Positions 6,187-44,235 are shown, numbered from the stretch's first letter. The stretch is DNA of 64,000 bases from a virus (IMGVR_UViG_3300020045_010841:1-64000); one strand, 5' to 3'. The notes: generated from the sequence alone by a model not told the origin. Made by a program: numbers and translations.

Positions 6187-7068
6187 TTATAACAAAGATT
6201 CTTTAAAAACTATTTTTGTAATATTAAATGATTTACTTGATGGAGCAGCACTAGCTACGTTAATTGTATTGGGGATTATATAACCATTTACTGTTAAAGT
6301 TAAATCCGAACGAGATGCTCTATCTCCTCCTCCCTCCACCATAATTGGTGTTGGAAAAGATGTAATACTCGCTTTAAACATGAACCTTTCCTTATCTCCC
6401 CAATATGAATCAGAAGCGAATTCAATAGCTTCAATCAATTTACTCATATGTTCTACATAATCAGTAAATATGGTAAGTTTATAAGTAATTGTTACATAAT
6501 CTGGTATAATACCTACTTTATATTCAACAGAGGGTTTTTGGTTTTGAAGAACAGAAAAGTTATCATATGAGTTTCTTTTACTATATCCTTGTTTAAAATA
6601 TTGAACGTTATTTACTTTATTACCATCTAATTTATTACCTATCGATCTATTTTTTTCAAATGATTCTCGCTTAAGTATTATTAATGGTATTTGGGCTTTG
6701 CCATTTTTATCGCGATAAAAACCGTCTTTCTGTACAGACTTCCATCTTTCAGGGGAACCGTATATAACAGGTACTTCGCGTTGATTTCCGTTGATCGATA
6801 CTGTTGGTTTAATATTATTTTGTAAATAATATAAAATAGTTTCATCGTGATCTTCTAATGATATACGAAAATCACTTACAGTATCTCCTTTTAATGAAAT
6901 TTCATTCGCACGAACAAAGTTTGGTTGTCCTGGATTGGTAGGAATTGATTCTTGAGTATTATTAGAATATGGTTGTAGAGTTTGTTCCGGAATAACATAC
7001 GAATCATGTAAGTTAGTTAAGAATTGCTCTCTATTTATTGGAGTTGGTTTATCTCTATTTTTAGCCAT
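6187..7068 (-). CDS. Tail terminator / sheath stabiliser, T4 gp15-like
   Basis: VPVIYGSPERW...PLI and PDYVTITYKLTIFTDY motifs; position after the neck genes. Confidence 0.7.
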   Translation of the reverse strand: MAKNRDKPTPINREQFLTNLHDSYVIPEQTLQPYSNNTQESIPTNPGQPNFVRANEISLKGDTVSDFRISLEDHDETILYYLQNNIKPTVSINGNQREVPVIYGSPERWKSVQKDGFYRDKNGKAQIPLIILKRESFEKNRSIGNKLDGNKVNNVQYFKQGYSKRNSYDNFSVLQNQKPSVEYKVGIIPDYVTITYKLTIFTDYVEHMSKLIEAIEFASDSYWGDKERFMFKASITSFPTPIMVEGGGDRASRSDLTLTVNGYIIPNTINVASAAPSSKSFNITKIVFKESLL

Positions 7069-7931
7069 TATTTAATATTTACATCTTTATTATATACTAA
7101 TAAATAATGAGTTCTTCCATCATCTATTAATTCTGCAGAATTTCCTAAATATTTTATAGCTTCATCGAAATCATCATTATCCGCATCTTCTATAGAAAAA
7201 TTGTTTTCATCATCACCCCAATAACCATATAGTCTTTTTCCATCTTTTAATGGAATATAAGGTTGTTCCCCATCAATATAAACTACAGGTTTATTAGGAT
7301 TATTTACTTTTATTTCATTTAGTACACCAACAATTTGTTTTACTATTTTATTTCTATCTTCCTTTACTACTGTACGTGAAAATTTATTACGTAATGTTTT
7401 TAAATCTCTTATTAATGAATTTAATTTAGGACGGGAATGGAAATCTTTAAGATGAATTGCTTCAAATTTATTTAATAATTTAGTTAAATCATCCCATATT
7501 TCTTTATCGGATATTTCTTTTTTAATATTCCAAGTTACTGATTGAGTAGTCGGGTCAACATCTGTAACAGTTGATTTATGTCCTCCTGCTTGGGTGGTTT
7601 GACCTACTTTAAATTTAGAAACGTCTTCTTGCAATCCTTTTAGTATATGGTCTTTAGTTTCTTCTACTTGGGATTTATCTCCTGAATATAACCATTCTAA
7701 AGCATCGTCTAAGTCTTGTATTGTATCGGTATTTTCGACTTTATCTAAATAATTATTAAAGTCTTCAATTTCATTTTCTCCTATATTTTCTCTATAGTTT
7801 TCAAACTCTTCCTCAACACCTAATCTTAATTCGTAAAATTCTTCCATACTTAATCCCTTAGTAAGAGGATTATTTACTTTAACTTCAGTAATTATTCCAG
7901 CTAATTGCTGTAATCTTTTTATTTCTTCCAT
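7068..7931 (-). CDS. Putative internal head polyprotein: RLQQLAGI leader plus two KVNNP modules
   Basis: Starts [22 protein letters not shown]; second tag LNEIKVNNP at ~7297-7316. Confidence 0.75.
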   Translation of the reverse strand: MEEIKRLQQLAGIITEVKVNNPLTKGLSMEEFYELRLGVEEEFENYRENIGENEIEDFNNYLDKVENTDTIQDLDDALEWLYSGDKSQVEETKDHILKGLQEDVSKFKVGQTTQAGGHKSTVTDVDPTTQSVTWNIKKEISDKEIWDDLTKLLNKFEAIHLKDFHSRPKLNSLIRDLKTLRNKFSRTVVKEDRNKIVKQIVGVLNEIKVNNPNKPVVYIDGEQPYIPLKDGKRLYGYWGDDENNFSIEDADNDDFDEAIKYLGNSAELIDDGRTHYLLVYNKDVNIK

Positions 7932-8428
7932 TATATTCTTTCTTCTTTAAGTCCTAGTTTCTCAGCGCGTGTATAATGCGCAGAACAAATGATACTAAGC
8001 GATGCTCCCGTATCTTCAACACCATCACCAACTTTATAAGCATAGTCTTTATCTCGCCCTGTTATTAATTGATTTTCATCAACGTTATCTATTTCAAAAT
8101 ATTCTTCATTCCATAACATTATATCACCTATCATAGGTACAACACCTGCCTGTTCGAGGTGTAATTTTAAAAAACGAACTGTAAGGGGACGTTGCCTATC
8201 TTGACCTTCATCTCCATCTGTTGTATTATATGAACCTCTTTCAATAAGACAATTTATAAGTACTGGTCCTATAAATGTTTTATTTAAACTTTCACCATAT
8301 ATATTGGTTGGAGAGTTTTGAATGTCGGCTGAGTAATAACCCACTTTTTGTTCAATAACTTGACCTAAAAGTTCTTTATTTATATTGTAGAAAAAATCTA
8401 CGTCGCGAGATCTTCCAAAAAAGCTCAT
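7931..8428 (-). CDS. Head closure / neck protein, T4 gp14-like
   Basis: NIYGES, P-x-IGDI-x-x-W-x-x-x-YFEI motifs; synteny with the adaptor and tail terminator. Confidence 0.7.
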
Positions 8429-9114
8429 AATACATCAATTTTAAATTTCCATATAAACCCACCACATTTTTTCCCTTTATTATTACATACACCATTAATT
8501 CCAGCTTGTTGTAAATTTAATTTTCTGGAAGCTTCTTTCCCACTAGGCCATTCTTTTATAAAATTGTTATTTAAATCATATTGTATAACAGATTTGTTTT
8601 TAGCCTTAACAACTGCTTCTATATGGCAACTTCTAGGTACTCCTTTATTTTTATAGGTTTTATTTACTATATGAGGGCTCCCTTTCCTAGATTTAGACAT
8701 ACTTTCTTTATGTTTATCAGAAAATAACATCCCTTTTCTTCCCTCACTTATATTAATTTTAGTTTGATCAGATTGGGGTACGCCCTTTTTAGTATTACTA
8801 ATTTTTAATTTGGTTTCTTCAGACCTTTTTCCAGATTGAGAATTTGTTTTTGTTAAAACACAATTCAATCCTTCCTCTAATACATTATAATAATCCTGCC
8901 AATAGCGTTCTCTTATATTTAGTTGTGTTATATCACATTCTTCTATTACTTCAAAAAAATGATTTTTAACACCATATTTAATAAATGAATTGTATAATCT
9001 ATTTTTATTTTTCCCTAAAACCAGTCTATGTTCTTTCCATCTATTCTCTATATTAATAGATTGACCTATATAAATACGATTTAAGGGAGAGGTAATTTTA
9101 TAAATTCCTATCAT
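8425..9114 (-). CDS. Free-standing GIY-YIG homing endonuclease with NUMOD3-like repeats and a C-terminal NUMOD1/IENR1-like domain
   Basis: GIYKIT..IYIGQS..RW.EH; SEETKLKIS / SDQTKINIS / SDKHKESMS repeats; VIQYDL..FIKEWPS..EASR...GGFIWKF. Confidence 0.9.
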
Positions 9115-9130
9115 ATTATATTATATTATA

Positions 9131-9415
9131 TTATATTTTATTTAAAGCCATATCTATATAATCTTGAATCATTCCCTCATCTCCGAATAAATAGTCAGAT
9201 AATATCTCTCTTATTCCTTCTTCGTCTTCCTGCTTATTTATGTCTTGAATATGATCGTTGATTCCTATTACTTGGTGCTCATCATCAGTAAATTCTTTAT
9301 CTCCTTCTAATACATGTTCTAGACCTCTTTTTAATACTGAAAGCCTATCTGGTTTATTTACTTTTACTTCAGTAATAATACCAGCTAATTGTTGTAGTCG
9401 TTTTATTTCGTTCAT
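9131..9415 (-). CDS. Small acidic protein: RLQQLAGI leader plus a KVNKP module
   Basis: Starts MNEIKRLQQLAGIITEVKVNKP; TAATG overlap with the upstream gene. Confidence 0.8.
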   Translation of the reverse strand: MNEIKRLQQLAGIITEVKVNKPDRLSVLKRGLEHVLEGDKEFTDDEHQVIGINDHIQDINKQEDEEGIREILSDYLFGDEGMIQDYIDMALNKI

Positions 9416-10584: not shown

Positions 10585-10596
10585 TTATTATTTTAA

Positions 10597-10604
10597 TATA
10601 AATA
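10597..10604 (-). promoter_or_regulatory. Putative late promoter TATTTATA upstream of the neck gene
   Basis: Recurrent octamer 12 nt upstream of the ATG. Confidence 0.55.
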
Positions 10605-11397: not shown

Positions 11398-13026
11398 TTA
11401 GATAGAATCTAAGTCTGCGATAAGAATTTTACCATAGAATTCGGGCCTTAACATTTTCTTAGCATATCTTGTCATTATCCCTTTGCGAGGTGTGAAAGTA
11501 TTTGGATCATATACTAATGGAGTAGTCATAATTGGAATGTATGGAGCATATACAGCACCTGTTTCCAAGAATTGATTACCTCTGAATCCCATTAATATTG
11601 TGTTCTCAGTCATATATGGGTTTTTGTAAACTTTATAACGAGAATTTAATTGACCTACTTTTTGTACACCAAATGCGTAAGACATTTTTTCTGCACTACC
11701 ATCTGTATCAGCAGCGAATCCTGGGATTGATTCTAATACTGTAGCAACTGTTGGAGAAACTACCATGAAGTTAGCACCACCTCTTAAAGTCTTTTGGTGA
11801 ATTTGGTTAGATAATTTTTGCATTTTAACCCCCAATGTTTGGAACCAAGACATTTTAGTGTAATACAAACCAGCATTGTTTGTGTTTGTGAATGAACCAC
11901 CAGTGTATTCAACACCTACTTTTGCTGACCAATACTCAGTTGTTGGGGCGTTTGTGATTAACATATCTAATATTTCCATATCGATTTCTAATGAGATATA
12001 TTCAGACATTAATCCTGTTACTTCAGCTTCAGCATCAATTGATTGAAATGCATTTAAATCTTGAGAGAATTCTGGTGTCCAGCTTGCTTTTAATTTTTTA
12101 GTTTTAGCAACAATCGGTTCAGATTTCATTTGAATATTAAATTCAGGAATTGAAATACTATCAGATGAAGCAGCATTTGGAATTGAGAATGTACCTGCTG
12201 TACTATCTTCAAAGTCACCTCTGTTGTTATCTTTAGTTTGTTTATTATATAATACTACGGCTCCTGTTAATGTTGGGGCACCATTATAAATAAATTCAAC
12301 ATTACCACCAGATAATTTGGTAAAGTTTTGCAATACATTTGTTACACTTACTCCAGAACCAGATACCATAAATGCTCTAACACCATTAGTATCAAAATCA
12401 GTTAATGAAGATGTTGCTACAGTAATTTTTCTCAAGGTACCTGCAGAAATTGAGGCAGAATAATTTGCATCATAATTTACATCTACCATAGAAGCAGAAA
12501 CTACTGCTCCAAAACCAGCAGATGCAGAGGCAACAGAGAATTGGTTAGTTGAGTAACCATATCTACCAGCACCATATAAACCACCTTCTGCGTCGTTTGA
12601 GAATGGAGTTGATAAACTATTTTTACCATATAAAGATTCACCTTTAGCGAATGGAGATTTTGTATTACCGTATTGGAAATCTAAGAAGAAAACCAAACCA
12701 GCAGGTAATGACATAGGTTGAACAGAAACGAATTCTTTTGCGGCAATTTGACCAAATACTTTACGTACTAATGGCAATGCCACAGCAGCATATTGTTCAC
12801 CTGATCCCGCTGTGAATGTTGCTCCACCTTGGTTAGTTGTATTAGATTCTAATACTAATTGTTTTGCTTGGCTTTCTAACAATACGGCCATATTGGCTTT
12901 TTCTGTATCGTTACTAAGATTTTCTAAAAGACCTGATTTTCCCCATTTTGAAACCAATTTCATGGCACCACTCAATTGAGATTGGTATGGGTTTGATCCT
13001 TCTAATAATTGTTGTACTACTGACAT
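11398..13026 (-). CDS. gp23: Major capsid protein, T4 gp23-like
   Basis: LPLVRKVF, VSVQPMSLPAGLVFFLDF, KKLKASWTPE..QDL, EIDMEIL, YAPYIP, FTPRKGIMTRYA motifs. Confidence 0.97.
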   Translation of the reverse strand: MSVVQQLLEGSNPYQSQLSGAMKLVSKWGKSGLLENLSNDTEKANMAVLLESQAKQLVLESNTTNQGGATFTAGSGEQYAAVALPLVRKVFGQIAAKEFVSVQPMSLPAGLVFFLDFQYGNTKSPFAKGESLYGKNSLSTPFSNDAEGGLYGAGRYGYSTNQFSVASASAGFGAVVSASMVDVNYDANYSASISAGTLRKITVATSSLTDFDTNGVRAFMVSGSGVSVTNVLQNFTKLSGGNVEFIYNGAPTLTGAVVLYNKQTKDNNRGDFEDSTAGTFSIPNAASSDSISIPEFNIQMKSEPIVAKTKKLKASWTPEFSQDLNAFQSIDAEAEVTGLMSEYISLEIDMEILDMLITNAPTTEYWSAKVGVEYTGGSFTNTNNAGLYYTKMSWFQTLGVKMQKLSNQIHQKTLRGGANFMVVSPTVATVLESIPGFAADTDGSAEKMSYAFGVQKVGQLNSRYKVYKNPYMTENTILMGFRGNQFLETGAVYAPYIPIMTTPLVYDPNTFTPRKGIMTRYAKKMLRPEFYGKILIADLDSI

Positions 13027-13040: not shown

Positions 13041-14057
13041 TTAGTTTTTAATTCCAGCTAATTTTTGCATTCTAGCAACAAAATCAACATTTTCTGTTAA
13101 TATTTGGCTAGGTCTTTGAGTAGCAACACCTGCTGGTCTTGATGCACTTCCTCTGTTTTCATTCATTGGCCTTTTTGGAGAAGTAATTAATGATTCTTTT
13201 AATGTAACGAATACATTTTCAGTTTCTTTAATAGTACCTGTTCTGTCAAAGGCGTTAATAACTTTTACTTTTTGGGATTCAGTTAAATTCATTGCTTTGA
13301 ACAATTTATTAACATGTAAAAGTTTTGAATTTAATAAATTAAGCTCTTTTAATGTTTTAGATTGTTCAGAAATAATTTGTCTAGCTTCTTGTAATTGTTC
13401 AGCGTTTTCTCTAAAACCCCCCATTTCTTTTGGTGATACACTTTTACCACCATAAAGGAAATTTGAAATAGCATCAAATCCTTTTCCTGTTTTAGCAGCA
13501 ATTTTTTTAATCAAAATTTCGATATCACCATCTCCATTTGATCCTTTTGGATTTCCTGCGGCACTACCAGCACCCCAATCTTCATCCAAACTAATTTCTT
13601 CATCGTCAGAAATTTCATCCTCAGATGTTTCAAATTCTTCTTCAGGAGCTTCAAACTCTTCTTCAGATCCACCTTCTAATTCGCCCATTACATCACGAAT
13701 GATATCTTTAAGCTCATCAACAGTAAGTTCTGCTACTTCTTCATCGCCTGCTACTTCTTCAGATCCTTCTACTTCTTCAGATCCTTCTACTTCTTCCGAA
13801 GCTTCTTCTGTTTCGGTTTCATCTACTTCATTGATTCCAGATTCTGAACCTTCTAATTCGTTTAGTAATTCATCTAAAGTAATTTCATCTTCTGATCCTT
13901 CTAATTCCTCTTCCATTTCATTTAATTGAGTTGAAAGCATTGATTTTACTTGTGGGGCGAAAGATTCGGCCATGGCTAATTTTGCATTACTAAATGCTGT
14001 TTCTCTAATGGCTTTTGCTTCAGCAATTGCGTCATTAAAAAATTTTGTTTTTGACAT
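13041..14057 (-). CDS. Prohead scaffold / core protein
   Basis: Very acidic and predicted coiled coil; lies between protease and capsid genes; many L/I-x-E sites; C-terminal RMQKLAGI. Confidence 0.85.
   Translation of the reverse strand: MSKTKFFNDAIAEAKAIRETAFSNAKLAMAESFAPQVKSMLSTQLNEMEEELEGSEDEITLDELLNELEGSESGINEVDETETEEASEEVEGSEEVEGSEEVAGDEEVAELTVDELKDIIRDVMGELEGGSEEEFEAPEEEFETSEDEISDDEEISLDEDWGAGSAAGNPKGSNGDGDIEILIKKIAAKTGKGFDAISNFLYGGKSVSPKEMGGFRENAEQLQEARQIISEQSKTLKELNLLNSKLLHVNKLFKAMNLTESQKVKVINAFDRTGTIKETENVFVTLKESLITSPKRPMNENRGSASRPAGVATQRPSQILTENVDFVARMQKLAGIKN
13730..13800 (-). repeat. 18-bp tandem repeat encoding EEVEGS / EEVAGD in the scaffold
   Basis: tacttcttcagatccttc occurs twice, flanked by degenerate copies. 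Confidence 0.8.
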
Positions 14058-14247: not shown

Positions 14248-14862
14248 TTATCTTAAACAACATATACCAGTAGCATTACATACTATTTCTGATATTAGTT
14301 CGTTTATTTTAGTATATTTAGTATTAACTTGTGGAACATAATTTTCATTTAATCCAATAGGTTTTACAAATGCTCCCTGCGTAGATGGTTCTGATACTAT
14401 GTCAAAGCAAACTAACGAAAGATCGTCTTGTACTTCAACAGTACCTTCACCTAAGTTTTGAACTGAACCCATTGCTCTTGATGATATCCCTATTTCAACT
14501 CCACCTTTAACTAATGCTTTAACTATATTACCAGAAGGCGTATCTAATATAAGTAATTTAGCTCTTACATCATCTCCATCCCACCACACTTCAGTTATTC
14601 TGTGACAGACGTTTTTCAAATTTATTATTTGACTGTCTGGATGGTCTAATTCCCCGGTTGCTCTATTTTCAGCAACGGGCCCTTGGCTATATCGTTCGAT
14701 TTCTTTCATCAAAACCTCTTTCGGATAAACCCTTCCATTTTGATTTTTAGCGTCTGCTCTTTGAATAATACCTTCCAAAACTAAATCACCACCACTTTTA
14801 ATACTTTCAAGTAATGACTGTCTATCTAATTTTAGAGGAAAATGTTCTACTAATAATTGCAT
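14248..14862 (-). CDS. gp21: Prohead core protease, T4 gp21-like
   Basis: NQNGRVYP, GELDHP, ILDTPSG, GISSRAMGS, FDIVSEPS motifs. Confidence 0.95.
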   Translation of the reverse strand: MQLLVEHFPLKLDRQSLLESIKSGGDLVLEGIIQRADAKNQNGRVYPKEVLMKEIERYSQGPVAENRATGELDHPDSQIINLKNVCHRITEVWWDGDDVRAKLLILDTPSGNIVKALVKGGVEIGISSRAMGSVQNLGEGTVEVQDDLSLVCFDIVSEPSTQGAFVKPIGLNENYVPQVNTKYTKINELISEIVCNATGICCLR

Positions 14863-15906: not shown

Positions 15907-17829
15907 TTATTGATTATGTCTTATTTTATTCATGAATATTAGAGATGATTTTGTAATATAATCCCCACCATTTGATGTATAGAATTTGGTTTGGAAATCA
16001 TTATGGCCTATATCAATTTTATTTACTAAAAAACCTCCTTTTTTAGTTACTATTATATCCCCAACCTTTATATTATCGGGATTAAAATCATGAATAGGTT
16101 TAGTAAAATCCCAATTACGGGCCGGTTTATTGATTTTTATCTCACCTAAATTTTTATTTTTTATTATATTTTGATTATTTAATCTTATCATATTATAAGT
16201 TCCAGTATCTGTTTTTATTATATCAGGACCTACCATATCTAAAATTTCTTTCTTTTCACCATTGGGATCTATAACATAATCTCCTATATTTACTTTATTA
16301 TTCCAAGATTTCCAATCATCATGAATGAAATCCCAAACTCGTTTTGGTCTATTTATTTTGACTTCGTCAACAGGACTAGATTTTGATAATTTTAATAAAT
16401 CATTATAAAATTGAGTTATTTCTATTGGAGATAAATTAGGTATTAATTCATCCAAGTATACCGCTTCAGGGTATTTATTAAAATATATATCCTCTACTTC
16501 TTCTCGTTTCCGGTCTTCTGGGATAGAATTATATAATTGAATTAAATCTTTTTCTGTTTTTATTCCAGGTGTATTTACTCTTACTTCATCAATTGAAGTT
16601 ATTTTAGATAATACTTCTTTTAATTTATCGTGTATTTTATATATACTATTTTTAGTACGTTTTAAATACTCTATTTCTTGATCACCTTCTTGTAATTCAC
16701 CCTTAATACGTGAAGTAAATTCAATTAAACGATTTACATCATCCAACTTCATACCAATTTCTTTTATTGCGCGATGAAGTATTTCTTGTGGTTTAGGTTT
16801 TGATGCAGAACGTTTAAATTGAGTGTAGCGAGACTCATTTATTGGCTCTAAATCTTGTTTTTTAACCCAAACTTCAGCTCGCCTATGTCCTTCTGGGTAA
16901 ATATATACTCTATCATCAACATATCTACTTACAATAAATTCTTCTCCATCCTCTGTTTTTACTTTTTGTCCAATTTTGAATGGTTGGGTTGGGTTGTTTA
17001 CTTTGACTTCATTAGTAGAAGATGAAAAATCTATTTCATCATCAGTCCACCAATATTCAACATTTTTATCCCCCTCAGGGAACGAGATTAAACTCCATGT
17101 TGTTGAATTTCTATCCCAAGAATCATCATATCCTTGATATTCTAATGATTTATCTATTTCGTCTTTATATTCATTATAATTAACTCCCCTTTTATAAACT
17201 AAAATATTATTTTTATCACCACTATTAAGTTTAGCTTTAATAATAAGGGGATTGTTTACTTTAATTTCATTTAAATTATCTCCTAAATAAATATATCTAT
17301 TTGGTTTTAAATTATATTTTTTTAATGCTGATTTATATAATTCTGTTGGATTTTCAATTGTAAATTCAGGCAATAATTCATCTATGCCTTGATCATGGTT
17401 TGTACTATAGTCGTCCTCACCACTATCATAAAGTAAAATGTCTAGTTGGCCTTTTGGATATTCGGTCCAATATGCTTCTCCCCAATTACTATCTCCTATT
17501 TTTCCTAATTTTGCTACTTTAACTTCTTGAGGATCCCTAGTTGCGGTAAATGCATTAACTAATCCTGGTTTGTTTACTTTTACTTCTTTCCATAAATCCT
17601 TACTATTAAGTCTTTGTTTTGGATTTACTATTTTGAATTTCATCTTTTTAGTATACATGTTTGGATTAGGAGATGATTCAAATCCAGTTGGTGATTTTAT
17701 ATCTTGTTTTTTTGGTTTACGGAAAGCAGCTTTAGTAAGATATCCTCCCGCGCCACCAGAAGTGGACATTTCTTTCATCAATTCCATACAATAAGCCTTG
17801 ATGGATGAACGTAAGATATTTCTATTCAT
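15907..17829 (-). CDS. Six-module KVNNP-tagged polyprotein (putative internal head protein)
   Basis: Tags EVKVNKP, EIKVNNP, EVKVNNP, EVRVNTP, EVKINRP, EIKINKP; N-terminal E|MSTSGGAGGY.TK.AF segment. Confidence 0.8.
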   Translation of the reverse strand: MNRNILRSSIKAYCMELMKEMSTSGGAGGYLTKAAFRKPKKQDIKSPTGFESSPNPNMYTKKMKFKIVNPKQRLNSKDLWKEVKVNKPGLVNAFTATRDPQEVKVAKLGKIGDSNWGEAYWTEYPKGQLDILLYDSGEDDYSTNHDQGIDELLPEFTIENPTELYKSALKKYNLKPNRYIYLGDNLNEIKVNNPLIIKAKLNSGDKNNILVYKRGVNYNEYKDEIDKSLEYQGYDDSWDRNSTTWSLISFPEGDKNVEYWWTDDEIDFSSSTNEVKVNNPTQPFKIGQKVKTEDGEEFIVSRYVDDRVYIYPEGHRRAEVWVKKQDLEPINESRYTQFKRSASKPKPQEILHRAIKEIGMKLDDVNRLIEFTSRIKGELQEGDQEIEYLKRTKNSIYKIHDKLKEVLSKITSIDEVRVNTPGIKTEKDLIQLYNSIPEDRKREEVEDIYFNKYPEAVYLDELIPNLSPIEITQFYNDLLKLSKSSPVDEVKINRPKRVWDFIHDDWKSWNNKVNIGDYVIDPNGEKKEILDMVGPDIIKTDTGTYNMIRLNNQNIIKNKNLGEIKINKPARNWDFTKPIHDFNPDNIKVGDIIVTKKGGFLVNKIDIGHNDFQTKFYTSNGGDYITKSSLIFMNKIRHNQ

Positions 17830-18094
17830 TTGTTTTAACTAAAATATCAAAAATTAATTCATTAGCATCATTTTCATCAAACCCATAATCTATCAAAAGA
17901 TAAATTAAGTCTTTATATTTTTTTATATCCTCCAAATCATGAGCAAATCCATTATACTGCCCAGGCTCTTGATAAAATTCTTCTTGATTTCTAAGTATTT
18001 CTCCTTTAAGAACATCAAAAGGAACTTGTCTGAAATTTGTTGGGTTATTTATTTTAATTTCAGCAATTAACTGCATCCTTTTAACTTGGTCCAT
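17822..18094 (-). CDS. Small acidic KINNP-module protein
   Basis: Starts MDQVKRMQLIAEIKINNP, a shortened leader. Confidence 0.75.
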   Translation of the reverse strand: MDQVKRMQLIAEIKINNPTNFRQVPFDVLKGEILRNQEEFYQEPGQYNGFAHDLEDIKKYKDLIYLLIDYGFDENDANELIFDILVKTNE

Positions 18095-20906: not shown

Positions 20907-21227
20907 TTATTTTATAATATCATATTCTCTTAACCATTCTGTAAAAGAATCAAGATTTCCCTCCCAACTATCTTCCCATTCCGTGTCTAACCACAATTTT
21001 ATATCATCTTTAGTAAAGGGATTTTTTAATCCTTTTGTCATCTGTATAGCATCTGCTGTATCTTCTCCAAATTCATCCCTCAAGTCATCATAATCAATTT
21101 TTCCTTTAGATAATTTTTTATGATAAGGTATTACCCATTCTTGAAATTTATATAATTCATTTGGATTATTTATCTTTACTTCGGCAATTATTCCAGCTAA
21201 TTGTTGTAATCTTTTTATTTCGTTCAT
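20907..21227 (-). CDS. Small protein: RLQQLAGI leader plus a KINNP module
   Basis: Starts MNEIKRLQQLAGIIAEVKINNP; lies between terminase and portal. Confidence 0.8.
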   Translation of the reverse strand: MNEIKRLQQLAGIIAEVKINNPNELYKFQEWVIPYHKKLSKGKIDYDDLRDEFGEDTADAIQMTKGLKNPFTKDDIKLWLDTEWEDSWEGNLDSFTEWLREYDIIK

Positions 21228-30780: not shown

Positions 30781-31026
30781 TTATTTCAATTTTTGAAAAC
30801 GATCAGCTATCTTATTAGCAATATTTCTTTCTACTCCCTCAGCTTTTGGTTTTGTAGTTGGACTCTCCACAGGTGGGGTTAATGTTCGTCTTCTAGGTTT
30901 TGGAGGAGAGTCTACATCCGGTTTAACAATTGTTTCACGTTCAGGAGCTTGTCTTTGTGGTGCTACTTGTGGTCTATTTTCTAATATAGCCTCTTTAACT
31001 ATTTGTCTTAATTCAGATTTTTTCAT
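30781..31026 (-). CDS. Small Pro-rich protein with an MKKSELRQIVKE leader
   Basis: Intact ORF tightly packed with its neighbours. Confidence 0.7.
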   Translation of the reverse strand: MKKSELRQIVKEAILENRPQVAPQRQAPERETIVKPDVDSPPKPRRRTLTPPVESPTTKPKAEGVERNIANKIADRFQKLK

Positions 31027-31952: not shown

Positions 31953-33251
31953 TTATGATAGTTTTAAAAATACTGATGATTCATCTAATTCACTACTTGC
32001 ATAGTTTATTAGTTGAGTTATTATTTGATCTTGAATATCTTTTGGTTGGTGTTCTATTTTTGCTATTAGTTGTAATCCAAGCAATTTGGATACTTTCCAA
32101 TCAATATTCTTTTCCAATATAAATATATCAAATTCTTCTCTAGGTAATATATCTATTTTAGTTGTAAATAATAACATTAAGGCACTTAATGCAACATAAG
32201 GATGTTCTTCCCATAATAATTTAATATCTTTGGTTGGTTTCAGTTCTATATCATATTTTTTTAATATTCCATTTATAGCACCAAATCCAATTTTACCATG
32301 ATTTGCTGTTTTACCTAATATTTCACCCGCCCAATTAGTACCAAAATTAAATGTACGAAAACATATTTTACCTCCATCATATAAAAGTGACACATCTTTA
32401 CTTTTAGATGTTGTTTTATATCCTAAATATTCATATTGTTTTTTCTTTTCTTTATCCATATTTTTCACTTCCAATTTAACTTCTTTTCCCAACTTCTTTA
32501 ATGATACACCTATTAAATCTTGTTTTACAAACATATCTTTAACTTGTATATTTAATTCATGTAAACTAGCGCTAAATCTAGTATTTAAAGCACAATCTTT
32601 TACAAACCATATATCCCCAGGATTCCATTTATCCGATTGAAAATTCGCGTTAGTATTTTTATAAGTATTATATAAATCGTTTATTAATGGGGAGTCTCTG
32701 TGGTGAGTATAATCACTCGAACTTACATAAGAATATAATATATTCGAACTAGTTAAAAAAGATTGTTGCCATGAAGGTGTTTTAGAAAATTCATATACTT
32801 CTTCTAATGGGGTAGTTGTTTGAACGTATTGATATGATTCGGATATAGAAGAATAAGTTACGTCTATCTGGTCTATTTCTTTCTTTTTTACATTTTTAGA
32901 TAAAGCATTAAATACACATTGTGTGCTTTCTTGTAATGCAGTATTTTTAGAACCTGCCCCTTGTCCTCCTCCAACACCAAATTCTTTTGTTTTGAGGAAA
33001 TTGGATAGTGATAGAGTATCATTAAATAGTTTTTTACTACCACCTAATTCACCATATTGTTTTGATTGGAGATATTTAATGCCGAGAGAAAGTTTGTCTA
33101 TAATAACAGAAGAACCATCTGTTAATTCAAATGGTTCTTGTTTCATTATTTTATCTAAAAATCTTTCACCTCGGTCTTGATATAAACCATAAAATTCGTG
33201 ATTGGAATGGTAAGGTTTTTCTAATTGGGGAGGAGATAAAGATATACTCAT
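31953..33251 (-). CDS. Hypothetical protein, possible PD-(D/E)xK nuclease fold
   Basis: KTKEFG, TALQES, DKWNPGDIW and LIGVSLKK motifs. Confidence 0.5.
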   Translation of the reverse strand: MSISLSPPQLEKPYHSNHEFYGLYQDRGERFLDKIMKQEPFELTDGSSVIIDKLSLGIKYLQSKQYGELGGSKKLFNDTLSLSNFLKTKEFGVGGGQGAGSKNTALQESTQCVFNALSKNVKKKEIDQIDVTYSSISESYQYVQTTTPLEEVYEFSKTPSWQQSFLTSSNILYSYVSSSDYTHHRDSPLINDLYNTYKNTNANFQSDKWNPGDIWFVKDCALNTRFSASLHELNIQVKDMFVKQDLIGVSLKKLGKEVKLEVKNMDKEKKKQYEYLGYKTTSKSKDVSLLYDGGKICFRTFNFGTNWAGEILGKTANHGKIGFGAINGILKKYDIELKPTKDIKLLWEEHPYVALSALMLLFTTKIDILPREEFDIFILEKNIDWKVSKLLGLQLIAKIEHQPKDIQDQIITQLINYASSELDESSVFLKLS

Positions 33252-34447
33252 TATCTTACTATTCTAAATTTTTTTACTTTTGGTTCTTCAACTTCTTTTA
33301 ATTCTTCTTCAGGTTTTTCTGGTTCCATAGTTGTTCCTTGTTCACCACCAACTTCTGGTTCTGATGTAAGATCAGAAACAAATTCATCCTTCATATCCTT
33401 TTCATTAGTAAGTTCTGATTCTGGTCCTTGTGAACCAGGAGGCATACCCATTAATAATAATTTTGATATTGCTTTTACTGCATATTCTTCATCTTTTATA
33501 TTAGACAAATAATATTGTTTACCAGCAATTTTTGCTATATAAGATTTTGGATTATAAATCATATAAAATGATTGCCCATTATGTAATAATACTTTAAATG
33601 TAGTAGGTTTTGGGGACATTACATATATACCAGTGATATAATCTCTAAATACAGGAGACATTAAATCGATTAATGCTTCGTTTAATGAAGGATATTTATT
33701 TATTATATATTCTAATGGATCTTCTTCAAATGTAGCTACTTCATCTTTTTGATTTTGTATAACATTATCGAGTTCTTCCTTTAATATTTGTTCTATATTC
33801 ATTTCTTGTAAATTATTTATTGAAGGTTTTACTTCTTTTTCAACTTCTTCAGGATAAACTAACCTAACATCAACAGTATCATCTTGTGAAAAATAATGAA
33901 TTGGAGTTGGTTCACCATTAGTTGTGAATTTATCTAAGTATTTTTTATAAGTATATCCTTTCTTATATTTTTTAGAATTATCATCCCAAATATCATACTT
34001 TTTTCCAATAATTAAGGTTGATGGTTTATTTATTTTAATTTCATTAATTGGTTTACCATTAATTTTAATAAGATCATCAAAATCCCTATTTATACTTTTT
34101 AATATATTAAAATCTATATTATTTAAAAAATCATTAACAGTACCGGGGAAATTATAAAAATTATATTTATTCAATATTTTAAATAAATTTACCTTTTCAT
34201 CTAATAAGTAATATTTCTTAATAACAGTATCAGGAGTAATAATAGGATTATTTACTTTAATTTCAAGCAATTTACCATTTATACTGATTATATTCTTGTA
34301 ATCCCTTCTATTATTGCCTATCCCAGCTTTATTAAAAAACAAGCCTTGAGTTGGATTTAACGGTTTTTCAAAACACATTACAGTATTATCTCTAAATCTA
34401 ATTTGGTCTCCTTTAGTAAGTTTTGATTTGATTTCTTGTGGAGTCAT
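33251..34447 (-). CDS. Putative head protein with two KVN/KIN modules
   Basis: LLEIKVNNP and INEIKINKP tags, followed by a PKPTTFKVLLHNGQ domain. Confidence 0.7.
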   Translation of the reverse strand: MTPQEIKSKLTKGDQIRFRDNTVMCFEKPLNPTQGLFFNKAGIGNNRRDYKNIISINGKLLEIKVNNPIITPDTVIKKYYLLDEKVNLFKILNKYNFYNFPGTVNDFLNNIDFNILKSINRDFDDLIKINGKPINEIKINKPSTLIIGKKYDIWDDNSKKYKKGYTYKKYLDKFTTNGEPTPIHYFSQDDTVDVRLVYPEEVEKEVKPSINNLQEMNIEQILKEELDNVIQNQKDEVATFEEDPLEYIINKYPSLNEALIDLMSPVFRDYITGIYVMSPKPTTFKVLLHNGQSFYMIYNPKSYIAKIAGKQYYLSNIKDEEYAVKAISKLLLMGMPPGSQGPESELTNEKDMKDEFVSDLTSEPEVGGEQGTTMEPEKPEEELKEVEEPKVKKFRIVR

Positions 34448-39064: not shown

Positions 39065-39643
39065 TTACAGGGATATTTGTTTTTGTTGTTTTATTTGTTC
39101 TTTAACTTTTTTAACATATTCATAGTCAATCGAGCCGCCTATCCATTTCTCTTTATCACCGTTTTCTGCAAATGTAGAATCTCCTAATGAATTAACATAT
39201 TCATCTAACACACCTTCAAAGTTAGTTAAGTGTTGATTTTTATTCAAATTCATTATATTGCGTTCATATTCTTCGTATTTGCCTTCTAATTTTAATTTTG
39301 TTTCCATTTCCGTGACACAATTAAAACAGGTACCATGAATATGATACATTTTTTTATTTAAATCAGTTAATTGAAAATGATTACCACAGCAAGGGCATTT
39401 TAGTGGGAATTTTGATGCTTGTTTTAGTGCATCAAATTTCGTTATTGTTTGTTTAATTCCATTCTTAATAGTCCATTTCTTCCCACCTTCTTCCCATTCA
39501 TCACCTTCAACATGTTCTACTTCTTGTTTTGAGTAACCAGTTTGGATTGATGTAGCATCACCATATCGTTTTTCAATAATATTTCGAATACGGGACAGAT
39601 CTTTCTCTTTGAATTCTTTTTTAAGTTGTGTATCTTGGCTCAT
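39065..39643 (-). CDS. Hypothetical protein with a zinc ribbon
   Basis: EGDEWEEGGKKWTIKNGIKQ, CPCC...CFNC. Confidence 0.7.
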   Translation of the reverse strand: MSQDTQLKKEFKEKDLSRIRNIIEKRYGDATSIQTGYSKQEVEHVEGDEWEEGGKKWTIKNGIKQTITKFDALKQASKFPLKCPCCGNHFQLTDLNKKMYHIHGTCFNCVTEMETKLKLEGKYEEYERNIMNLNKNQHLTNFEGVLDEYVNSLGDSTFAENGDKEKWIGGSIDYEYVKKVKEQIKQQKQISL

Positions 39644-39804
39644 TAAAAAGATTTTGTTTTTTCTATTACTTGTCTTATAATATCTTTTCGTTCTTGTTCT
39701 GAAATGGATTTGTTTCTTTTAATAACATAATTGTCTATGTCTTTTTGTATGTTTTTAAACATTATATTATCTTTAGCTTTTTTGTTGGGGTTATTTACTT
39801 TCAT
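39643..39804 (-). CDS. Mini-ORF starting MKVNNP (53 aa)
   Basis: Hand translation MKVNNPNKKAKDNIMFKNIQKDIDNYVIKRNKSISEQERKDIIRQVIEKTKSF; ATGA and TAATG overlaps with both neighbours. Confidence 0.75.
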   Translation of the reverse strand: MKVNNPNKKAKDNIMFKNIQKDIDNYVIKRNKSISEQERKDIIRQVIEKTKSF

Positions 39805-40337: not shown

Positions 40338-40351
40338 ATAACTTATTTTTA

Positions 40352-43255
40352 TTATTCAAATATCTCTTTATTTTCTCTACTAAATTTACGCATCATAGTA
40401 CCAGCGGTAGAGTTAGCTTCGTTCTCCCATTCATCGCCATCTTTACCAGCCCCAAGCTCTAATCTATCTTCTAAATCTTGTTTCAAATGGACCATTTCAT
40501 GGAACATACTACGAGTAATATCAGCTAAATTACGATTATTAGTAACTACTCTTATGCTTTTATCATGGGGAGAATAACCACCAAAAGATGAATATTCTTT
40601 AGTATACTCGGGATTATTAATTAATATAATATTAGGTTTTGGAACATCCAAATATTCCATAGCATATTTTACTGCTTTATCTAAAATAGGAGCATGTTGT
40701 TTTTGAAATACTTCTTTTAATCCTTCTGGAGTTGATTTTTTAATTCTACCTTGAATTTTATCCCAATCAATTACATGACTTTCATAATTTGGACTCAAAA
40801 AATGAGCATAATCCCAAGGACCTGATGGGAGTTCTTTTTGAAATCGACCCATGTATTTTCCTTTTACCCAATCATCTGTTCCAAACTCATCTACAAGGTA
40901 TTCTTTTCCTATTATAGGAACATTAGGTTTATTTACTTTTATTTCGCCCAACGTTTGTTTTAATGATTCTTTAATAACTTCTTCTACATCATTATAGGGT
41001 TCAATATTAGGTAAAATATCTGAAATATATTGTTCCACATTTATTTCTTTACCTTTGTATTGTGATTTAATTTGGGGGTATTTTTCTTGTAAATGTTGTA
41101 TAATTTTTAATACACGAGTATTATCACCTACTTTATCTAAAAATACAACAATTTCTTTTATATAATTTTGTGCATTAGGAATTTCTGTTTTAGTACCTAA
41201 ATTAACTCGCTCTTCCGCTTCATCTAAATGAGAATTGTTAGTTGTTTTTGTATTAATAACATTTCCATAATAGGAGAATGGTTGGATTTTGAAATTTTGA
41301 GATAATTTATTCCCATCTATTGTAATTCTAGCTAATGAACCAGTTACTTTTGGATCTTTTTTCCATAAATCCTTGTTTCTAGTCATTGAGAAATAATTAA
41401 CATCTTCTATTCCTTTATCTTTATAATCAGATTCTTTTTTCCTAAATGAACGAAAGTCAGGACTATATTTATCAACTTCTGTTTTAGAAGACTTAAAAAC
41501 ATTATCATATAATATACCTTGCAATCCATTATAGCTAGTAAAATGATATAAATCCCCATAATTTTTAGCTTCATCTATATGAGCAGGAGTTCGTTTCTCC
41601 ATCCCATTTGCTATATTAATTAATTGAGGAAGTGTATTTGTTTCTTTTATTCTCTCATAAAAGCGCGGAATGTTATCAGTCATCATATCATACCCAAATT
41701 TTTCTAAAATATCACTAAATTCAACTTGATTTTTAACAGAATGAATTAAATCTTCAAAATCTTGGTAAGGAATTATACCAGGCTTATTAACTTTTATTTC
41801 TTCTATACTAGCTAATTTATCGTAATATTTAGGATCTTCATAAATATGATCCATAGCTATTTCTTTTGCAACAGCTCGAGAAGTAGTATGTTCCATTTCA
41901 ACTTTTATTCCCTTAAATAATTGTGATGATAATTTAGATTTAGTTGTTGAGTGTTTTTTAGCTAAATCATCTAATGTCATACCAGAAGATAAACCACCGG
42001 GTATTTTTTCTTCATTTAAATCTAGTTTAACTTTAGATAAATCAACGCTTGACATAAGTGATGTTATTTCCTTAGTATAGTGTTTTATCTCTTTTGATAC
42101 TTCTGAAGTTGGGAGGCTCATAGATTCAGGAACACCCATAGGATTATTTTTTCCTAGATATATAACATTATTTGATATTCTTTCATTTTGAAAATACAAC
42201 TCCCCTTCATATAAATCTTCATCAAGTTTGTTAGGTGATTTAAATAATAAAGGTTTTGATGGATTATTTACTTTTACTTCATTCATATCTTCCTCAGGTT
42301 GAGCCCAAAATCTTTTTTCATATCCTGGTTCTAATAATAAAACAATTGGGTACCATTTTTTGTCATTCCATATTGTCTCAGTATCATTAATCAATGAACC
42401 ATCAAACCAGGTGTATCCATCTTTTTCAAGAATATTAAAATATCTTATTCCATTTTGTAAATCTTTTATATGGAGAGGGAATTTAATAGTTGGATTATTT
42501 ACTTTTACTTCATTTAAATCAGTAATAGCTAATAATTTATTTGATTTTTTATATAATATAATTTTTGAAGGAAAATCATAAAGTTCTGGTGTTTCTCCAT
42601 ATAACCATTTATATCCTAATAATTCTATTTTTTCTTTTATTTTATACCAATCATTAATATCATTTAATGTTATAGGAAATTCAATATTATTTGGATTATT
42701 TACTTTTACTTCATGTAATTGAAAATTTAATAAAAATTCATTTACTGTTATTCCTTCTGGTATTAACGATTTTATTGCTAATCTATTTCGTTTAGCTATT
42801 GCTTCACGCAAGGAAGTTGCAGATAAATTTTCATAATTACCGGCATCTATTATATCAACATTAAAATACTTTTCTCTATTTTCATTTATAGAATTAAATC
42901 TATCTTGTTCCCCTTTACCATATACTACAAGATAATTTTGAGATTTATCTTTAACTATGTTATATATTTCTGTTATGGGGGATTTGGATTCAGATATAGA
43001 AATTATTACATTTTGGGGTAAAACCTTTTTATATTGATTCCATACTTTTAATAATACTTCAGGAGTATATCCTTCACGTATATTATTTGAAATAATAATA
43101 TGAACGGAATCAGCAACTAAAGAAGCACGTCGAACAACTTCGACGTGACCTTTATGTGGAGGAGAAAACGATCCTGGGAAAAGTGCAACTAGTGGGGCAT
43201 TTTCTGCTATTAATTTATTTGATATTTTTTCTCCTATTTGTGTTCCTAAATCCAT
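40352..43255 (-). CDS. 967 aa polyprotein: HxGH nucleotidyltransferase, five KVN modules, DUF5661-like domain, ADP-ribosyltransferase-like domain and HExxH peptidase-like domain
   Basis: FPGSFSPPHKGH; GIKVEMEHT..IAMDH..EDPKYY; LYHFTS...FSMTR...EAEERV; FHEMVH..Q...ENEAN. Confidence 0.8.
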   Translation of the reverse strand: MDLGTQIGEKISNKLIAENAPLVALFPGSFSPPHKGHVEVVRRASLVADSVHIIISNNIREGYTPEVLLKVWNQYKKVLPQNVIISISESKSPITEIYNIVKDKSQNYLVVYGKGEQDRFNSINENREKYFNVDIIDAGNYENLSATSLREAIAKRNRLAIKSLIPEGITVNEFLLNFQLHEVKVNNPNNIEFPITLNDINDWYKIKEKIELLGYKWLYGETPELYDFPSKIILYKKSNKLLAITDLNEVKVNNPTIKFPLHIKDLQNGIRYFNILEKDGYTWFDGSLINDTETIWNDKKWYPIVLLLEPGYEKRFWAQPEEDMNEVKVNNPSKPLLFKSPNKLDEDLYEGELYFQNERISNNVIYLGKNNPMGVPESMSLPTSEVSKEIKHYTKEITSLMSSVDLSKVKLDLNEEKIPGGLSSGMTLDDLAKKHSTTKSKLSSQLFKGIKVEMEHTTSRAVAKEIAMDHIYEDPKYYDKLASIEEIKVNKPGIIPYQDFEDLIHSVKNQVEFSDILEKFGYDMMTDNIPRFYERIKETNTLPQLINIANGMEKRTPAHIDEAKNYGDLYHFTSYNGLQGILYDNVFKSSKTEVDKYSPDFRSFRKKESDYKDKGIEDVNYFSMTRNKDLWKKDPKVTGSLARITIDGNKLSQNFKIQPFSYYGNVINTKTTNNSHLDEAEERVNLGTKTEIPNAQNYIKEIVVFLDKVGDNTRVLKIIQHLQEKYPQIKSQYKGKEINVEQYISDILPNIEPYNDVEEVIKESLKQTLGEIKVNKPNVPIIGKEYLVDEFGTDDWVKGKYMGRFQKELPSGPWDYAHFLSPNYESHVIDWDKIQGRIKKSTPEGLKEVFQKQHAPILDKAVKYAMEYLDVPKPNIILINNPEYTKEYSSFGGYSPHDKSIRVVTNNRNLADITRSMFHEMVHLKQDLEDRLELGAGKDGDEWENEANSTAGTMMRKFSRENKEIFE

Positions 43256-43956
43256 TCTTTTATATGTAATTTTATATCATCAATTTCTATACTATTTTGT
43301 GATAAGAAATTTTTTAATTTTGTTAATTCAAGCCATTTAAAATCTACATTTTCACAAATTTCATTAAATTTTTTCTCTTTAATAAGTATTTGTTCCACTG
43401 TATATTCTGTTATTTCTTTTCGGAAAGTAGATGGATATTCTTTATAATCTTTTTCTAAATAATTAACCAAACAATCATATTCTAATAATATTGTTCCTTC
43501 TTCCTCAGTATATTCTGTCTCGTACACATAAATATTATCTTTTCCAAACATATTTATATAATCGTCTATTTGTGAATATACTTTTAACCACAAATCTAAT
43601 AGTACTTGTTTTGGCAAACGTCTTTCACGAGAAAAATTGCGTTTAAACGCAATAATTGGATTACAATATACTATCACGGCTTTAAATTGATATTGTTTAC
43701 TATCAATGGTTTTACGCAGAGTATTTAGGTTAGCACCGGTGGTATCTAATATAAAATTTCTTTTATCTCCCATTAATGAGGGTAAATATTCATCATAAAT
43801 ATATTTAGCAGCTTTTAATGGATTATTATAACAGCTACTTAATTTTTCCTCTACTAATAAATCTGGATTAACAATATCGTACCATATATTTAATTCTTTA
43901 ATTAATGTGCTTTTACCTGATGCAGGCGCTCCTAATATTATTATACCTTTATTCAT
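43246..43956 (-). CDS. P-loop kinase, zeta-toxin / AAA_33-like
   Basis: GAPASGKST, VNPD, ILDTTG and RNFSRER motifs. Confidence 0.8.
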   Translation of the reverse strand: MNKGIIILGAPASGKSTLIKELNIWYDIVNPDLLVEEKLSSCYNNPLKAAKYIYDEYLPSLMGDKRNFILDTTGANLNTLRKTIDSKQYQFKAVIVYCNPIIAFKRNFSRERRLPKQVLLDLWLKVYSQIDDYINMFGKDNIYVYETEYTEEEGTILLEYDCLVNYLEKDYKEYPSTFRKEITEYTVEQILIKEKKFNEICENVDFKWLELTKLKNFLSQNSIEIDDIKLHIKEWI

Positions 43957-44099
43957 TATATATCGATTAATGAGATATGATCTATTGTTATTATATTAAT
44001 ATTAGTTCTGTAAAAACCATGATCTTTTTTATATTGTCTTAACCATTCTTTTTTATCTAATTCTTTTTTAACCTTAATTATGGGATTATTTACTTTCAT
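43956..44099 (-). CDS. Mini-ORF starting MKVNNP (47 aa)
   Basis: Hand translation MKVNNPIIKVKKELDKKEWLRQYKKDHGFYRTNINIITIDHISLIDI; TAATG overlap with the kinase gene. Confidence 0.7.
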   Translation of the reverse strand: MKVNNPIIKVKKELDKKEWLRQYKKDHGFYRTNINIITIDHISLIDI

Positions 44100-44235
44100 T
44101 TCCTAGATATTTAGAGGGAATACCCGCTATTTTATATAATTCTTCTTTTATATAAGTACCTAATGCAATTCTATTAGATAATTGTTCTAAAGCTAATTTT
44201 TGTTTAGCTATATTTACAGGATTATTTACTTTCAT
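44086..44235 (-). CDS. Mini-ORF starting MKVNNP (49 aa)
   Basis: Hand translation MKVNNPVNIAKQKLALEQLSNRIALGTYIKEELYKIAGIPSKYLGNESK; first ORF after a promoter-like element. Confidence 0.7.
   Translation of the reverse strand: MKVNNPVNIAKQKLALEQLSNRIALGTYIKEELYKIAGIPSKYLGNESK

Follow-up and report, generated by a model that had tools for sequence, protein, structure and literature searches.

Genes of the window and the tagged open reading frames

We analyzed the opening 64 kb (64,000 nucleotides; hereafter, the window) of IMGVR_UViG_3300020045_010841, a single-contig virus record of 132,388 bases with a G+C content of 28.5%, for a nine-residue peptide that recurs in ten of its open reading frames (ORFs). 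The initial annotation had written this peptide as (I/L/V/M/W/T)-x-E-[VI]-[KR]-[VI]-N-[NKRT]-P and had read it as a protease site from which tagged cargo modules are released. We refer to its last six residues as the tag, to the stretch behind each tag as a module, and to a hydrophobic residue followed by any residue and Glu as h-x-E. Nearly all genes of the window lie on the minus strand, and the core gene set, with capsid, scaffold, protease, portal, and terminase, is that of a T4-like myophage. The closest cultured phage is Flavobacterium phage vB_FspM_immuto, which has the gene order in common; protein identity is 44 to 56% in portal, terminase, capsid, protease, and other conserved genes and 30 to 43% in scaffold and some others. 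The head genes referred to below are as follows.

11398-13026, minus strand: major capsid protein, matching T4 gp23 (E 6e-27)
13041-14057, minus strand: scaffold protein with the C terminus ...ARMQKLAGIKN, which has its motif in common with the N-terminal leaders
14248-14862, minus strand: prohead protease of the gp21 type (Peptidase S77), the presumed cutter (Pfam PF03420, E 2.9e-32; T4 gp21 5jbl, E 5.7e-18)
18961-20889: portal
21241-22851: large terminase, 536 amino acids (aa)

The tagged ORFs are listed next, with each tag placed by the first base of its P1' codon. The term cassette denotes what would be the evolutionary unit, namely, a tag, a module of ~60 to 110 aa, and a closing h-x-E.

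7068-7931, minus strand: 287-aa protein; 16-residue leader, tag at 7883, 190-aa part, second tag at 7313, 81-aa module
9131-9415, minus strand: 94-aa protein; leader MNEIKRLQQLAGIITE, one tag at 9367, module
15907-17829, minus strand: 640-aa polyprotein; 82-aa basic head, then six tagged modules (17583, 17265, 17007, 16584, 16362, 16140)
17822-18094, minus strand: 90-aa protein; leader MDQVKRMQLIAE, one tag at 18058, module
20907-21227, minus strand: 106-aa protein; leader MNEIKRLQQLAGIIAE, one tag at 21179, module
26594-28831, minus strand: 745-aa conserved protein; one cassette (26911) between the core and a C-terminal RERLQNRAGIR tail
28831-30780, minus strand: 649-aa conserved protein, here called protein X; core segments aa 1-95, 264-348, and 412-559, broken or trailed by four tagged cassettes (30495, 30210, 29736, 29103)
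31023-31952, minus strand: 309-aa protein; one tag at 31319, then a 98-aa basic C-terminal module
33251-34447, minus strand: 398-aa protein; two tags (34261, 34039)
40352-43255, minus strand: 967-aa polyprotein; five tags (42709, 42508, 42277, 41797, 40942); NMNAT-like domain (aa 1-182), three tagged modules, DUF5661, a tagged module, an ART-like fold (~aa 560-735), a further tagged module, and a zincin-like HExxH domain (~aa 843-965)
39643-39804, minus strand: stand-alone 53-aa ORF starting MKVNNP, its ATG overlapping the stop codon of the upstream gene
43956-44099, minus strand: stand-alone 47-aa ORF starting MKVNNP
44086-44235, minus strand: stand-alone 49-aa ORF starting MKVNNP

Frequency, flanking residues, and codons of the tag

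A six-frame scan with the regular expression [VI][KR][VI]N.P returned 24 matches in the window. They are confined to the minus strand and to the 10 ORFs that the initial annotation had named, and each of the 24 also fits the full motif [ILVMWT].E[VI][KR][VI]N[NKRT]P. At the DNA level, the degenerate pattern GARRTNARRRTNAAYNNNCC matched 25 times, again only on the minus strand, against an expectation of 0.04 ± 0.20 (maximum, 1) from 100 dinucleotide-preserving shuffles; the shuffle comparison that the annotation had proposed thus puts the motif above background. The 25th match, GAA-ATG-AAA-GTA..., falls at the start of a mini-ORF. Glu precedes the tag in 24/24 copies, and the P3 residue is L, I, V, or M in 22 of them. 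Beyond these, no internal copy occurs anywhere in the 132,388 bases of the genome, and the genes for capsid, portal, terminase, tail, and stand-alone enzymes are accordingly free of the tag, as had been claimed. The gp21 homologue was likewise where the annotation had put it. We do not retain the end coordinate given for the region (44235), since it takes in the stand-alone MKVNNP mini-genes, which are outside the 24 copies.

The residues of the tag are conserved while its codons drift. Among the 24 copies the tag Pro is encoded by CCA (14), CCT (8), CCG (1), and CCC (1); Val and Ile interchange, as do Lys and Arg, and GAG, AAG, and AAC codons occur. In 27 nonredundant copies from relatives we counted GAG 6 times, AAG/AGG/AGA 5 times, GTG/GTC 5 times, and AAC 6 times, with three Pro codons in use. 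The earlier claim of variation at silent positions stands for Pro, with its four codons, and for the Val/Ile interchange, but less so for Val itself, which is GTA in 26/30 cases and GTT in only 2, compared with genome-wide shares of 42% for GTT and 0.47 for GTA. A GTA share of ~0.6 is expected after GAA or AAA codons, and the tag Val exceeds this as well. In the relatives, Val at P3' is GTA 15 times, GTG 4 times, and GTC once, both P1' Val codons are GTA, and GTT is absent (0/22). Codon freedom is therefore lower than the annotation had implied.

The claim that each copy heads a module of ~55 to 105 aa was right in part. From the tag to the next tag or stop codon, 16/24 stretches are no longer than 110 aa (67 to 106 aa); the remaining 8 measure 141 to 285 aa and consist of a module plus an untagged conserved domain.

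Cassettes and the exchange of modules

Protein X has more than 170 homologues of 376 to 1,101 aa, and among 120 listed, 51 carry 1 to 8 tags. In its short homologues, the three core segments are contiguous, joined by ...LDE|SISPE... and ...VIINE|QQSG..., whereas tagged homologues have at least one unit of tag, module, and h-x-E directly after those Glu residues. Placement directly after the core-junction Glu means that h-x-E is duplicated at the two ends of the unit. Anchor motifs allowed the junctions to be placed in 51 of these 120 homologues; the remaining 69 were dropped because at least one anchor expression failed. Orthologues carry unrelated modules at an identical junction, and in a more distant protein X clade the tag, the insert, and the Glu of the first junction are all absent. 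An AlphaFold2 model of protein X (80-row alignment) has a mean predicted local distance difference test score (pLDDT) of 74, with cores at ~90; three of the tags (residues 96-101, 191-196, and 560-565) fall wholly or largely within stretches of pLDDT <50, and the tag at 349-354 comes directly after core strand 340-347.

The same arrangement is seen in the other two large conserved proteins. The orthologue of the 745-aa protein in the close relative L046 has two different cassettes at the place where this phage has one, and the C-terminal tail is kept. Nine orthologues of the 967-aa protein all have an NMNAT-like domain ending ...NFQ[LI]HE|[VI]KVN.P (9/9); DUF5661 is present in 6/9 and HExxH in 8/9, and the intervening cassettes vary.

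Modules recur across contexts. Those at 26911 and 7313, in two different ORFs of the window, are homologous (41% identity over 76 aa). Likenesses were found between the internal cassette at 42709 and a stand-alone MKVNNP gene of the relative G002 (51% over 35 aa) and between the leader-headed module at 9367 and a module of G003 that was scored as internal (48% over 77 aa). The module at 7883 recurs in L040 behind a different leader, MDIKQHKQFLLSE| (45% over 130 aa), and that at 34261 is similar to two genes of relatives, one stand-alone and starting MKVNNP (L037), the other leader-headed (L038). When 29 tag-stripped segments of the genome, together with one stray match of a looser expression, were compared by BLAST, they fell into 26 clusters. 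Given this diversity, and with tags in or beside the predicted flexible linkers of the protein X model, we rejected the possibility that the tag is an integral strand of one shared fold, an outcome that the initial annotation had named as refuting its reading.

Where the tag departs from its usual form, it does so in concert. Within single proteins of the protein X family the variants are uniform: ITIN[KN]P in 3 copies, I[TI][VI][AVSG].P in 8, [IV]K[IV][IF]SGT in 3, and IKI[DKE]... in 4. Metagenome contig L078, the one contig on which concerted variation across several genes was examined, has 11 tags in three genes, with T (8), I (2), or L (1) at P2' and never K, whereas P2' is K or R in 24/24 window copies. 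Such concerted variants point to one trans-acting reader of the tag or to homogenization by recombination. Because all copies within a lineage change together, the tag, once exposed, is probably read by one trans-acting partner, perhaps for retention, docking, or ejection.

Leaders, mini-leaders, and stand-alone genes

Four ORFs of the window have leaders of 12 to 16 residues before the tag, leaders of 3 to 10 residues occur in metagenome proteins, and this genome and its relatives together provide 19 nonredundant leader-headed segments. The shortest are of the form M-N-E|IKINKP, found in metagenome proteins, in which a three-residue leader still supplies aliphatic-x-Glu. These candidate leaders have the form of a T4-type capsid targeting sequence (CTS), that is, a short N-terminal propeptide ending at a predicted protease site on otherwise unrelated small proteins. 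One leader type is built on RxQxLAGI. This motif ends the scaffold protein (13041-14057; the immuto scaffold also) and the 745-aa protein at 26594-28831, and it heads three small proteins as a leader (7068-7931, 9131-9415, and 20907-21227); its loci also include L001 19818-19910. The scaffold C termini read ...RMQKLAGIKN here and ...RWQKLAGIIK in immuto, which the RLQQLAGI leaders resemble, so the RxQxLAGI leader appears to be a mimic of the scaffold tail for capsid targeting. In immuto, a single leader of this type is followed by ITE|SQFNEE and no tag; the combination of leader and site would therefore predate the tag.

Some tagged proteins of relatives (L037 13111; L040 10505) begin with a leader of another type, MDI(A/K)...(N/Q)FLLSE|. 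Similar starts, MFDIKSSRNFLLKE (window 23500-24366) and MDIASSRNFLLKE (L046 7897-8574), precede N in place of the tag.

The genome has five small tag-started ORFs, with ATG at 44235, 44099, 39804, and 111171 and GTG at 129552; three of them are in the window. They occupy intergenic gaps on the coding strand, and five further MKVNNP-started ORFs are found in loci of relatives. In G002, the pattern ATG-AAR-RTN-AAY-NNN-CC occurs 9 times on the forward strand, 0 times on the reverse strand, and 0 times in controls, these being counts of pattern matches in which each ATG is a candidate start.

Two peptide words, QYEIY and PQYEI, have 21 occurrences each in the ORFs of the genome. A C-terminal P-x-YEIY-stop was found in G002 (C1:67008-90844) in 26 forward, 0 reverse, and 0 control matches, once in G003, and not at all (0) in immuto. 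Since the C-terminal word is abundant in tagged G002 and absent from tag-less immuto, the N-terminal and C-terminal systems co-occur.

The head protease and its candidate sites

In T4, small prohead-core genes lie between portal and protease. Here that position is taken by the six-tag polyprotein at 15907-17829, with the protease given as 45 bases downstream (coordinates 14248-14862); of this polyprotein, only aa 7-38 match anything in immuto, a 73-aa protein. A tagged polyprotein is directly upstream of the protease gene in this genome and in 3/3 relatives in which the protease was found (G002, G003, and G005). A search for the protease family in G001 gave no match, that record being a 28%-complete fragment and control genomes being equally silent.

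Across 48 homologues of the protease, H74, S127/S128, and the site G170-L-N-E173 are invariant; His74 and Ser127/128 are the residues that we take to be catalytic. A cluster of Cys residues, C195, C201, and C202, located C-terminal to G-L-N-E173, is also invariant in the 48 homologues, and the stretch that carries it may be a removable C-terminal piece. In the capsid protein, residues 1 to 60 include four h-x-E sites (E9, E35, E51, and E60) whose conservation extends over this phage, two tagged relatives, and immuto, which lacks the tag; neither these nor the protease site GLNE173 are followed by a tag. A predicted complex of protease residues 1-175 (48 rows) with the first 45 residues of the 94-aa protein (6 rows) scored 0.07 and 0.06, compared with a mark of 0.32, values that speak neither for nor against binding.

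Two observations concern neighboring genes. The 229-aa ORF at 8425-9114, amid the head-region genes, starts MIGIYKI...IYIGQS and looks like a GIY-YIG homing endonuclease. In L046 (10319-13099), the large terminase has 926 aa versus 536 aa here, and the long insert that divides its conserved sequence looks like an intein or a homing endonuclease.

Distribution in relatives

The initial annotation had proposed a scan of related genomes. Tags were found in uncultured low-G+C viral contigs: the complete 175-kb G002 has 23 on the forward strand, with 0 on the reverse strand and 0 in controls, followed by G003 (90 kb) with 9, G005 with 6, G004 with 3, and G006 with 2. Phage immuto has none in its 160,410 bases, and L077, a relative of P0016, has none either. 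A scan of IMG/VR for the exact peptide EVKVNNP gave 29 stretches, with a leader context only in L020; the other 28 look like chance.

A profile made from the 24 copies and run against 1.84 billion representative proteins returned 71 proteins at E ≤ 0.001; the number of matched stretches per protein runs from 2 to 11, and the longest protein has 1,967 aa. Among them are at least two, P0244 and P0257, that come from the window itself or nearly match its proteins. In the 64 proteins with new identifiers, Glu precedes 207/207 strict tags, and P3 is L (111), I (60), V (12), M (7), T (7), W (4), F (4), Q (1), or Y (1), so that L, I, V, or M accounts for 190/207. Tag-to-tag spacing in these proteins has a median of 95.5 aa and a minimum of 57. 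Among the protein X homologues, Glu stands before 92/92 unique tags, with L (48), I (37), V (6), or M (1) at P3. The two large conserved tagged proteins are absent from 50,697 GenBank phage records, cultured and uncultured, save for weak partial matches in uncultured huge phages.

Candidate cargo domains

Searches of PHROGs and Pfam left 6/7 of the larger tagged proteins searched without an informative family; in the 309-aa protein, aa 117-206 are covered by phrog_2267, a family of unknown function. For the 967-aa protein, Pfam reported CTP_transf_like (E 1.1e-5) and DUF5661 (E 5.6e-12) and matched no peptidase family. Its model (9 rows) has a mean pLDDT of 52 and is usable only at ~565-750 and 850-967. 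There, the zincin-like domain aligned to Wss1/SprT-type peptidases with VIA-align Z scores of 8.2 to 8.9, a range that unmatched models also reach, and the ART-like fold aligned to Tpt1 (Z 7.9 to 8.0) and DarT (Z 6.3 to 6.9), matches that at a mean pLDDT of 52 are leads only. Atlas scores for the ART-like and zincin-like folds were 0.84 to 0.88 (DarT/PARP, 0.88). Foldseek found no match at E ≤ 0.001 for the 967-aa model; for protein X, it found none in PDB at that threshold and one uncharacterized phage protein in BFVD.

Sixteen large tagged proteins from metagenomes were also searched. Imm5 (30.3 bits; cutoff, 25) and SET (32.7 bits; cutoff, 22.4) were each found in 1/16, DUF5661 in 5/16, CTP_transf_like in 5/16 (2 of these just below the cutoff), and a Pol-beta-type nucleotidyltransferase in 2/16, with NTP_transf_2 just at the cutoff; 8/16 had no hit. 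This domain content fits that of the conflict-type polyvalent proteins (PMC5512222). The anti-defense arsenal that the initial annotation had envisaged is weakly supported by these domain leads: NMNAT-like, DUF5661, ART-like, and zincin-like here and Imm5 and SET in relatives.

A proposed mechanism and its alternatives

In the mechanism that we propose, the nine-residue motif would combine a prohead-protease site of the T4 type (aliphatic-x-Glu) with a tag of six residues, [VI]-K-[VI]-N-x-P. Whether the S77 head protease cuts after the Glu and so exposes a shared N-terminal tag is, judged from sequence, an even call; the specificity assumed for this protease would follow from its homology with T4 gp21 (PMC9026906). 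After such a cut, the tag would be the N terminus of the module behind it. Cassettes are met with in four settings: after short leaders that would be removable and that in some cases copy the scaffold C-terminal RxQxLAGI; in tandem strings behind a small protein in the head-core position; as in-frame insertions into flexible h-x-E linkers of conserved proteins; and as stand-alone genes, where the initiator Met replaces V/I and the same end state would be reached without a cut. Precursors would enter the prohead, the S77 protease would cut their h-x-E sites, and ~30 small proteins with the same N terminus would be freed inside the capsid. The reading first put forward, that of protease-released tagged modules, is supported in part, by the P-side rule, the placement in linkers, the attachment to unrelated modules, the stand-alone genes, and the adjacency to the protease gene.

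Several observations weigh against this proposal. A number of the tagged genes (26594-34447 and 40352-43255) lie amid replication and metabolism genes, away from the capsid genes. Because the candidate capsid sites have no tag, the tag would be dispensable for S77 cleavage as such; the mature N terminus of T4 gp23 aligns near capsid residue 53, in a weak alignment of 15 bits. The short modules contain 16 internal h-x-E versus 19.7 ± 3.6 in shuffles (P = 0.19), so that selection against such sites is not significant. The GTA skew of the tag Val (26/30) hints at an added constraint at the nucleotide level. The 92 and 207 tags with a preceding Glu are not independent events, since many occupy orthologous positions. 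Finally, no cultured phage carrying tagged proteins was found in the collection.

The tag may have other roles, in place of this one or alongside it: it may form part of an extended recognition element of the protease, act as a docking motif ahead of cleavage, or serve as a recombination handle. If the hexapeptide were only the P' half of an extended S77 recognition site, with no function after the cut, one would understand why every internal tag is fused to h-x-E and why lineage variants are concerted, as would be expected of coevolution with one enzyme; the alternating I-x-V would also suit an extended strand in a binding groove. This account is nevertheless unlikely in our estimation, because stand-alone M-KVNNP genes exist without a P side (10 ORFs; in G002, 9 forward matches versus 0 in controls), because the conserved candidate sites of capsid and protease do without a tag, and because the residue behind h-x-E at cassette C termini and core junctions is S, E, Q, or G. 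Alternatively, the motif might never be cut and might serve as a flexible linker or as a short docking motif for the scaffold core, the capsid interior, or another partner, the proteins being intact beads on a string. The position of tags in or beside low-confidence linkers of the model would agree with this, and packaging without processing is known for certain polyvalent proteins, among them the N4 virion RNA polymerase (PMC5512222). It would, however, leave unexplained the invariant Glu and the aliphatic P3 before every internal tag, the in-frame cassettes with h-x-E on both sides, and the MNE| mini-leaders, and we think it quite unlikely.

Cleavage might also be the work of another enzyme, either the zincin-like HExxH domain of the 967-aa protein or a host protease, acting in the cytoplasm or after injection. 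The HExxH domain is conserved in 7 of the 8 orthologues aligned with the 967-aa protein and has the structural resemblance to Wss1/SprT-type peptidases described above, and autoproteolytic release by embedded metallopeptidases was proposed by Iyer et al. (PMC5512222). Against this, residues P3 to P1 follow the rule known from serine proteases of the gp21 type, tagged strings adjoin the S77 gene, Pfam is silent on the HExxH domain, and its fold scores are within the range of unmatched models; we consider a second enzyme very unlikely. Least probable of all, though it could coexist with the mechanism proposed above, is that the tag is mainly a DNA-level handle (GAA RTA AAA RTA AAT ...) for in-frame recombination of cassettes, with the peptide incidental. 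Unrelated modules exchanged at identical junctions and the GTA skew of the tag Val speak for such a handle, and gene conversion could yield the concerted variants. Synonymous or conservative changes are nonetheless found at every position, with the residues held (27 copies of relatives), Val alternates with Ile and Lys with Arg, and every copy is on the coding strand and in frame, with none intergenic.

A wider extension of the proposed release by the S77 protease is that the hexapeptide is a portable N-terminal address for a receptor in the capsid, at the portal, or in the newly infected cell. Any small protein could then enter the virion-delivered set by gaining the tag and h-x-E as a cassette, by lodging in a protease-site linker of an existing head protein, or by having Met-tag as its start. 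Together with the C-terminal P-x-YEIY-stop on ~25 to 30 small proteins of the same phages, the hexapeptide would make up a two-tag sorting system; we advance this tentatively and would sooner expect it to fail than to hold. An internal translation start at the V/I codon was considered and rejected, the codons in use (GTA, GTT, GTC, ATA, and ATT) not being usual starts.

If the proposed mechanism is correct, a phage lineage could enlarge and reshuffle the set of proteins it carries into the next cell with no need to devise targeting anew. Any small domain, even within the linkers of conserved proteins, would become a plug-in cassette once provided with a protease site and the six-residue tag. 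The junction code would be simple enough for the cargo set of uncultured phages to be predicted from sequence, and lineage-specific tag variants would provide a natural experiment for finding the reader.

Comparison with known systems

The picornavirus-type 2A "StopGo" element is a short Asn/Pro peptide that separates polyprotein units and ends in NPGP. Like it, the tag is short and conserved and contains Asn and Pro; unlike it, the tag lacks NPGP and is tied to a protease-type P side. We rejected 2A-type ribosomal skipping on the absence of NPGP: Gly follows the tag Pro in 20/92 tags, with no fixed Pro after it.

For T4 gp21, the cleavage rule is worded L/I-x-E. The protease motifs of T4 and phiKZ are both cleaved after Glu, the gp21 site being LIE-9 (PMC9026906). 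Related to gp21 are phiKZ gp175 and SPN3US gp245, which act on many head proteins and cleave behind the Glu of a three-residue motif, present at several sites in the propeptides (PMC9026906, PMC10052503). In those phages, P3 is small (S/A/G), P1' shows a weak preference for Ser, and 13/14 mapped SPN3US sites remove N-terminal propeptides; a conserved P' hexapeptide and strings of cassettes are not described for phiKZ or SPN3US in the available text of these sources. More generally, neither tag strings nor a description of the motif was found in the main text of the literature searched, and the product-side hexapeptide, the cassette strings, the linker inserts, and the tag-started genes are, within that literature, not described for T4 internal-protein/CTS processing or for polyvalent proteins, relative to which they would be new.

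The closest likeness is to the internal proteins of T4. IPI to IPIII and Alt carry a CTS and are processed by gp21, and Alt is an ADP-ribosyltransferase that is cut at both ends (PMC3012670, PMC9026906). Common to both systems are an S77 protease, short leaders ending in aliphatic-x-Glu, and diverse, fast-evolving cargo with a shared address. In T4, however, the shared element is the leader that is removed, whereas here a second shared element comes after the cut and would stay on the product. Also unlike T4, as far as the available sources go, modules here occur in strings of 2 to 6 (up to 10 strict tags in relatives), as in-frame inserts, and in leaderless tag-started genes. If the proposal holds, the removable CTS of T4 would have been extended by a tag retained at the mature end.

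Polyvalent proteins, in which nucleotidyltransferase, ART, and zincin-like peptidase domains are brought together, are large proteins of phages with many domains, and they are predicted to be packaged and processed (PMC5512222). The class is defined by domain content, with two to fifteen conflict-type domains in one polypeptide and often a zincin-like metallopeptidase, and the embedded peptidases were proposed as the processors (PMC5512222). The available text of that work describes no repeated junction peptide, whereas the junction code found here matches a separate head protease and the modules it separates are mostly of unknown fold. Should cleavage at these junctions be confirmed, the processing of polyvalent proteins would gain a concrete, readable junction code.

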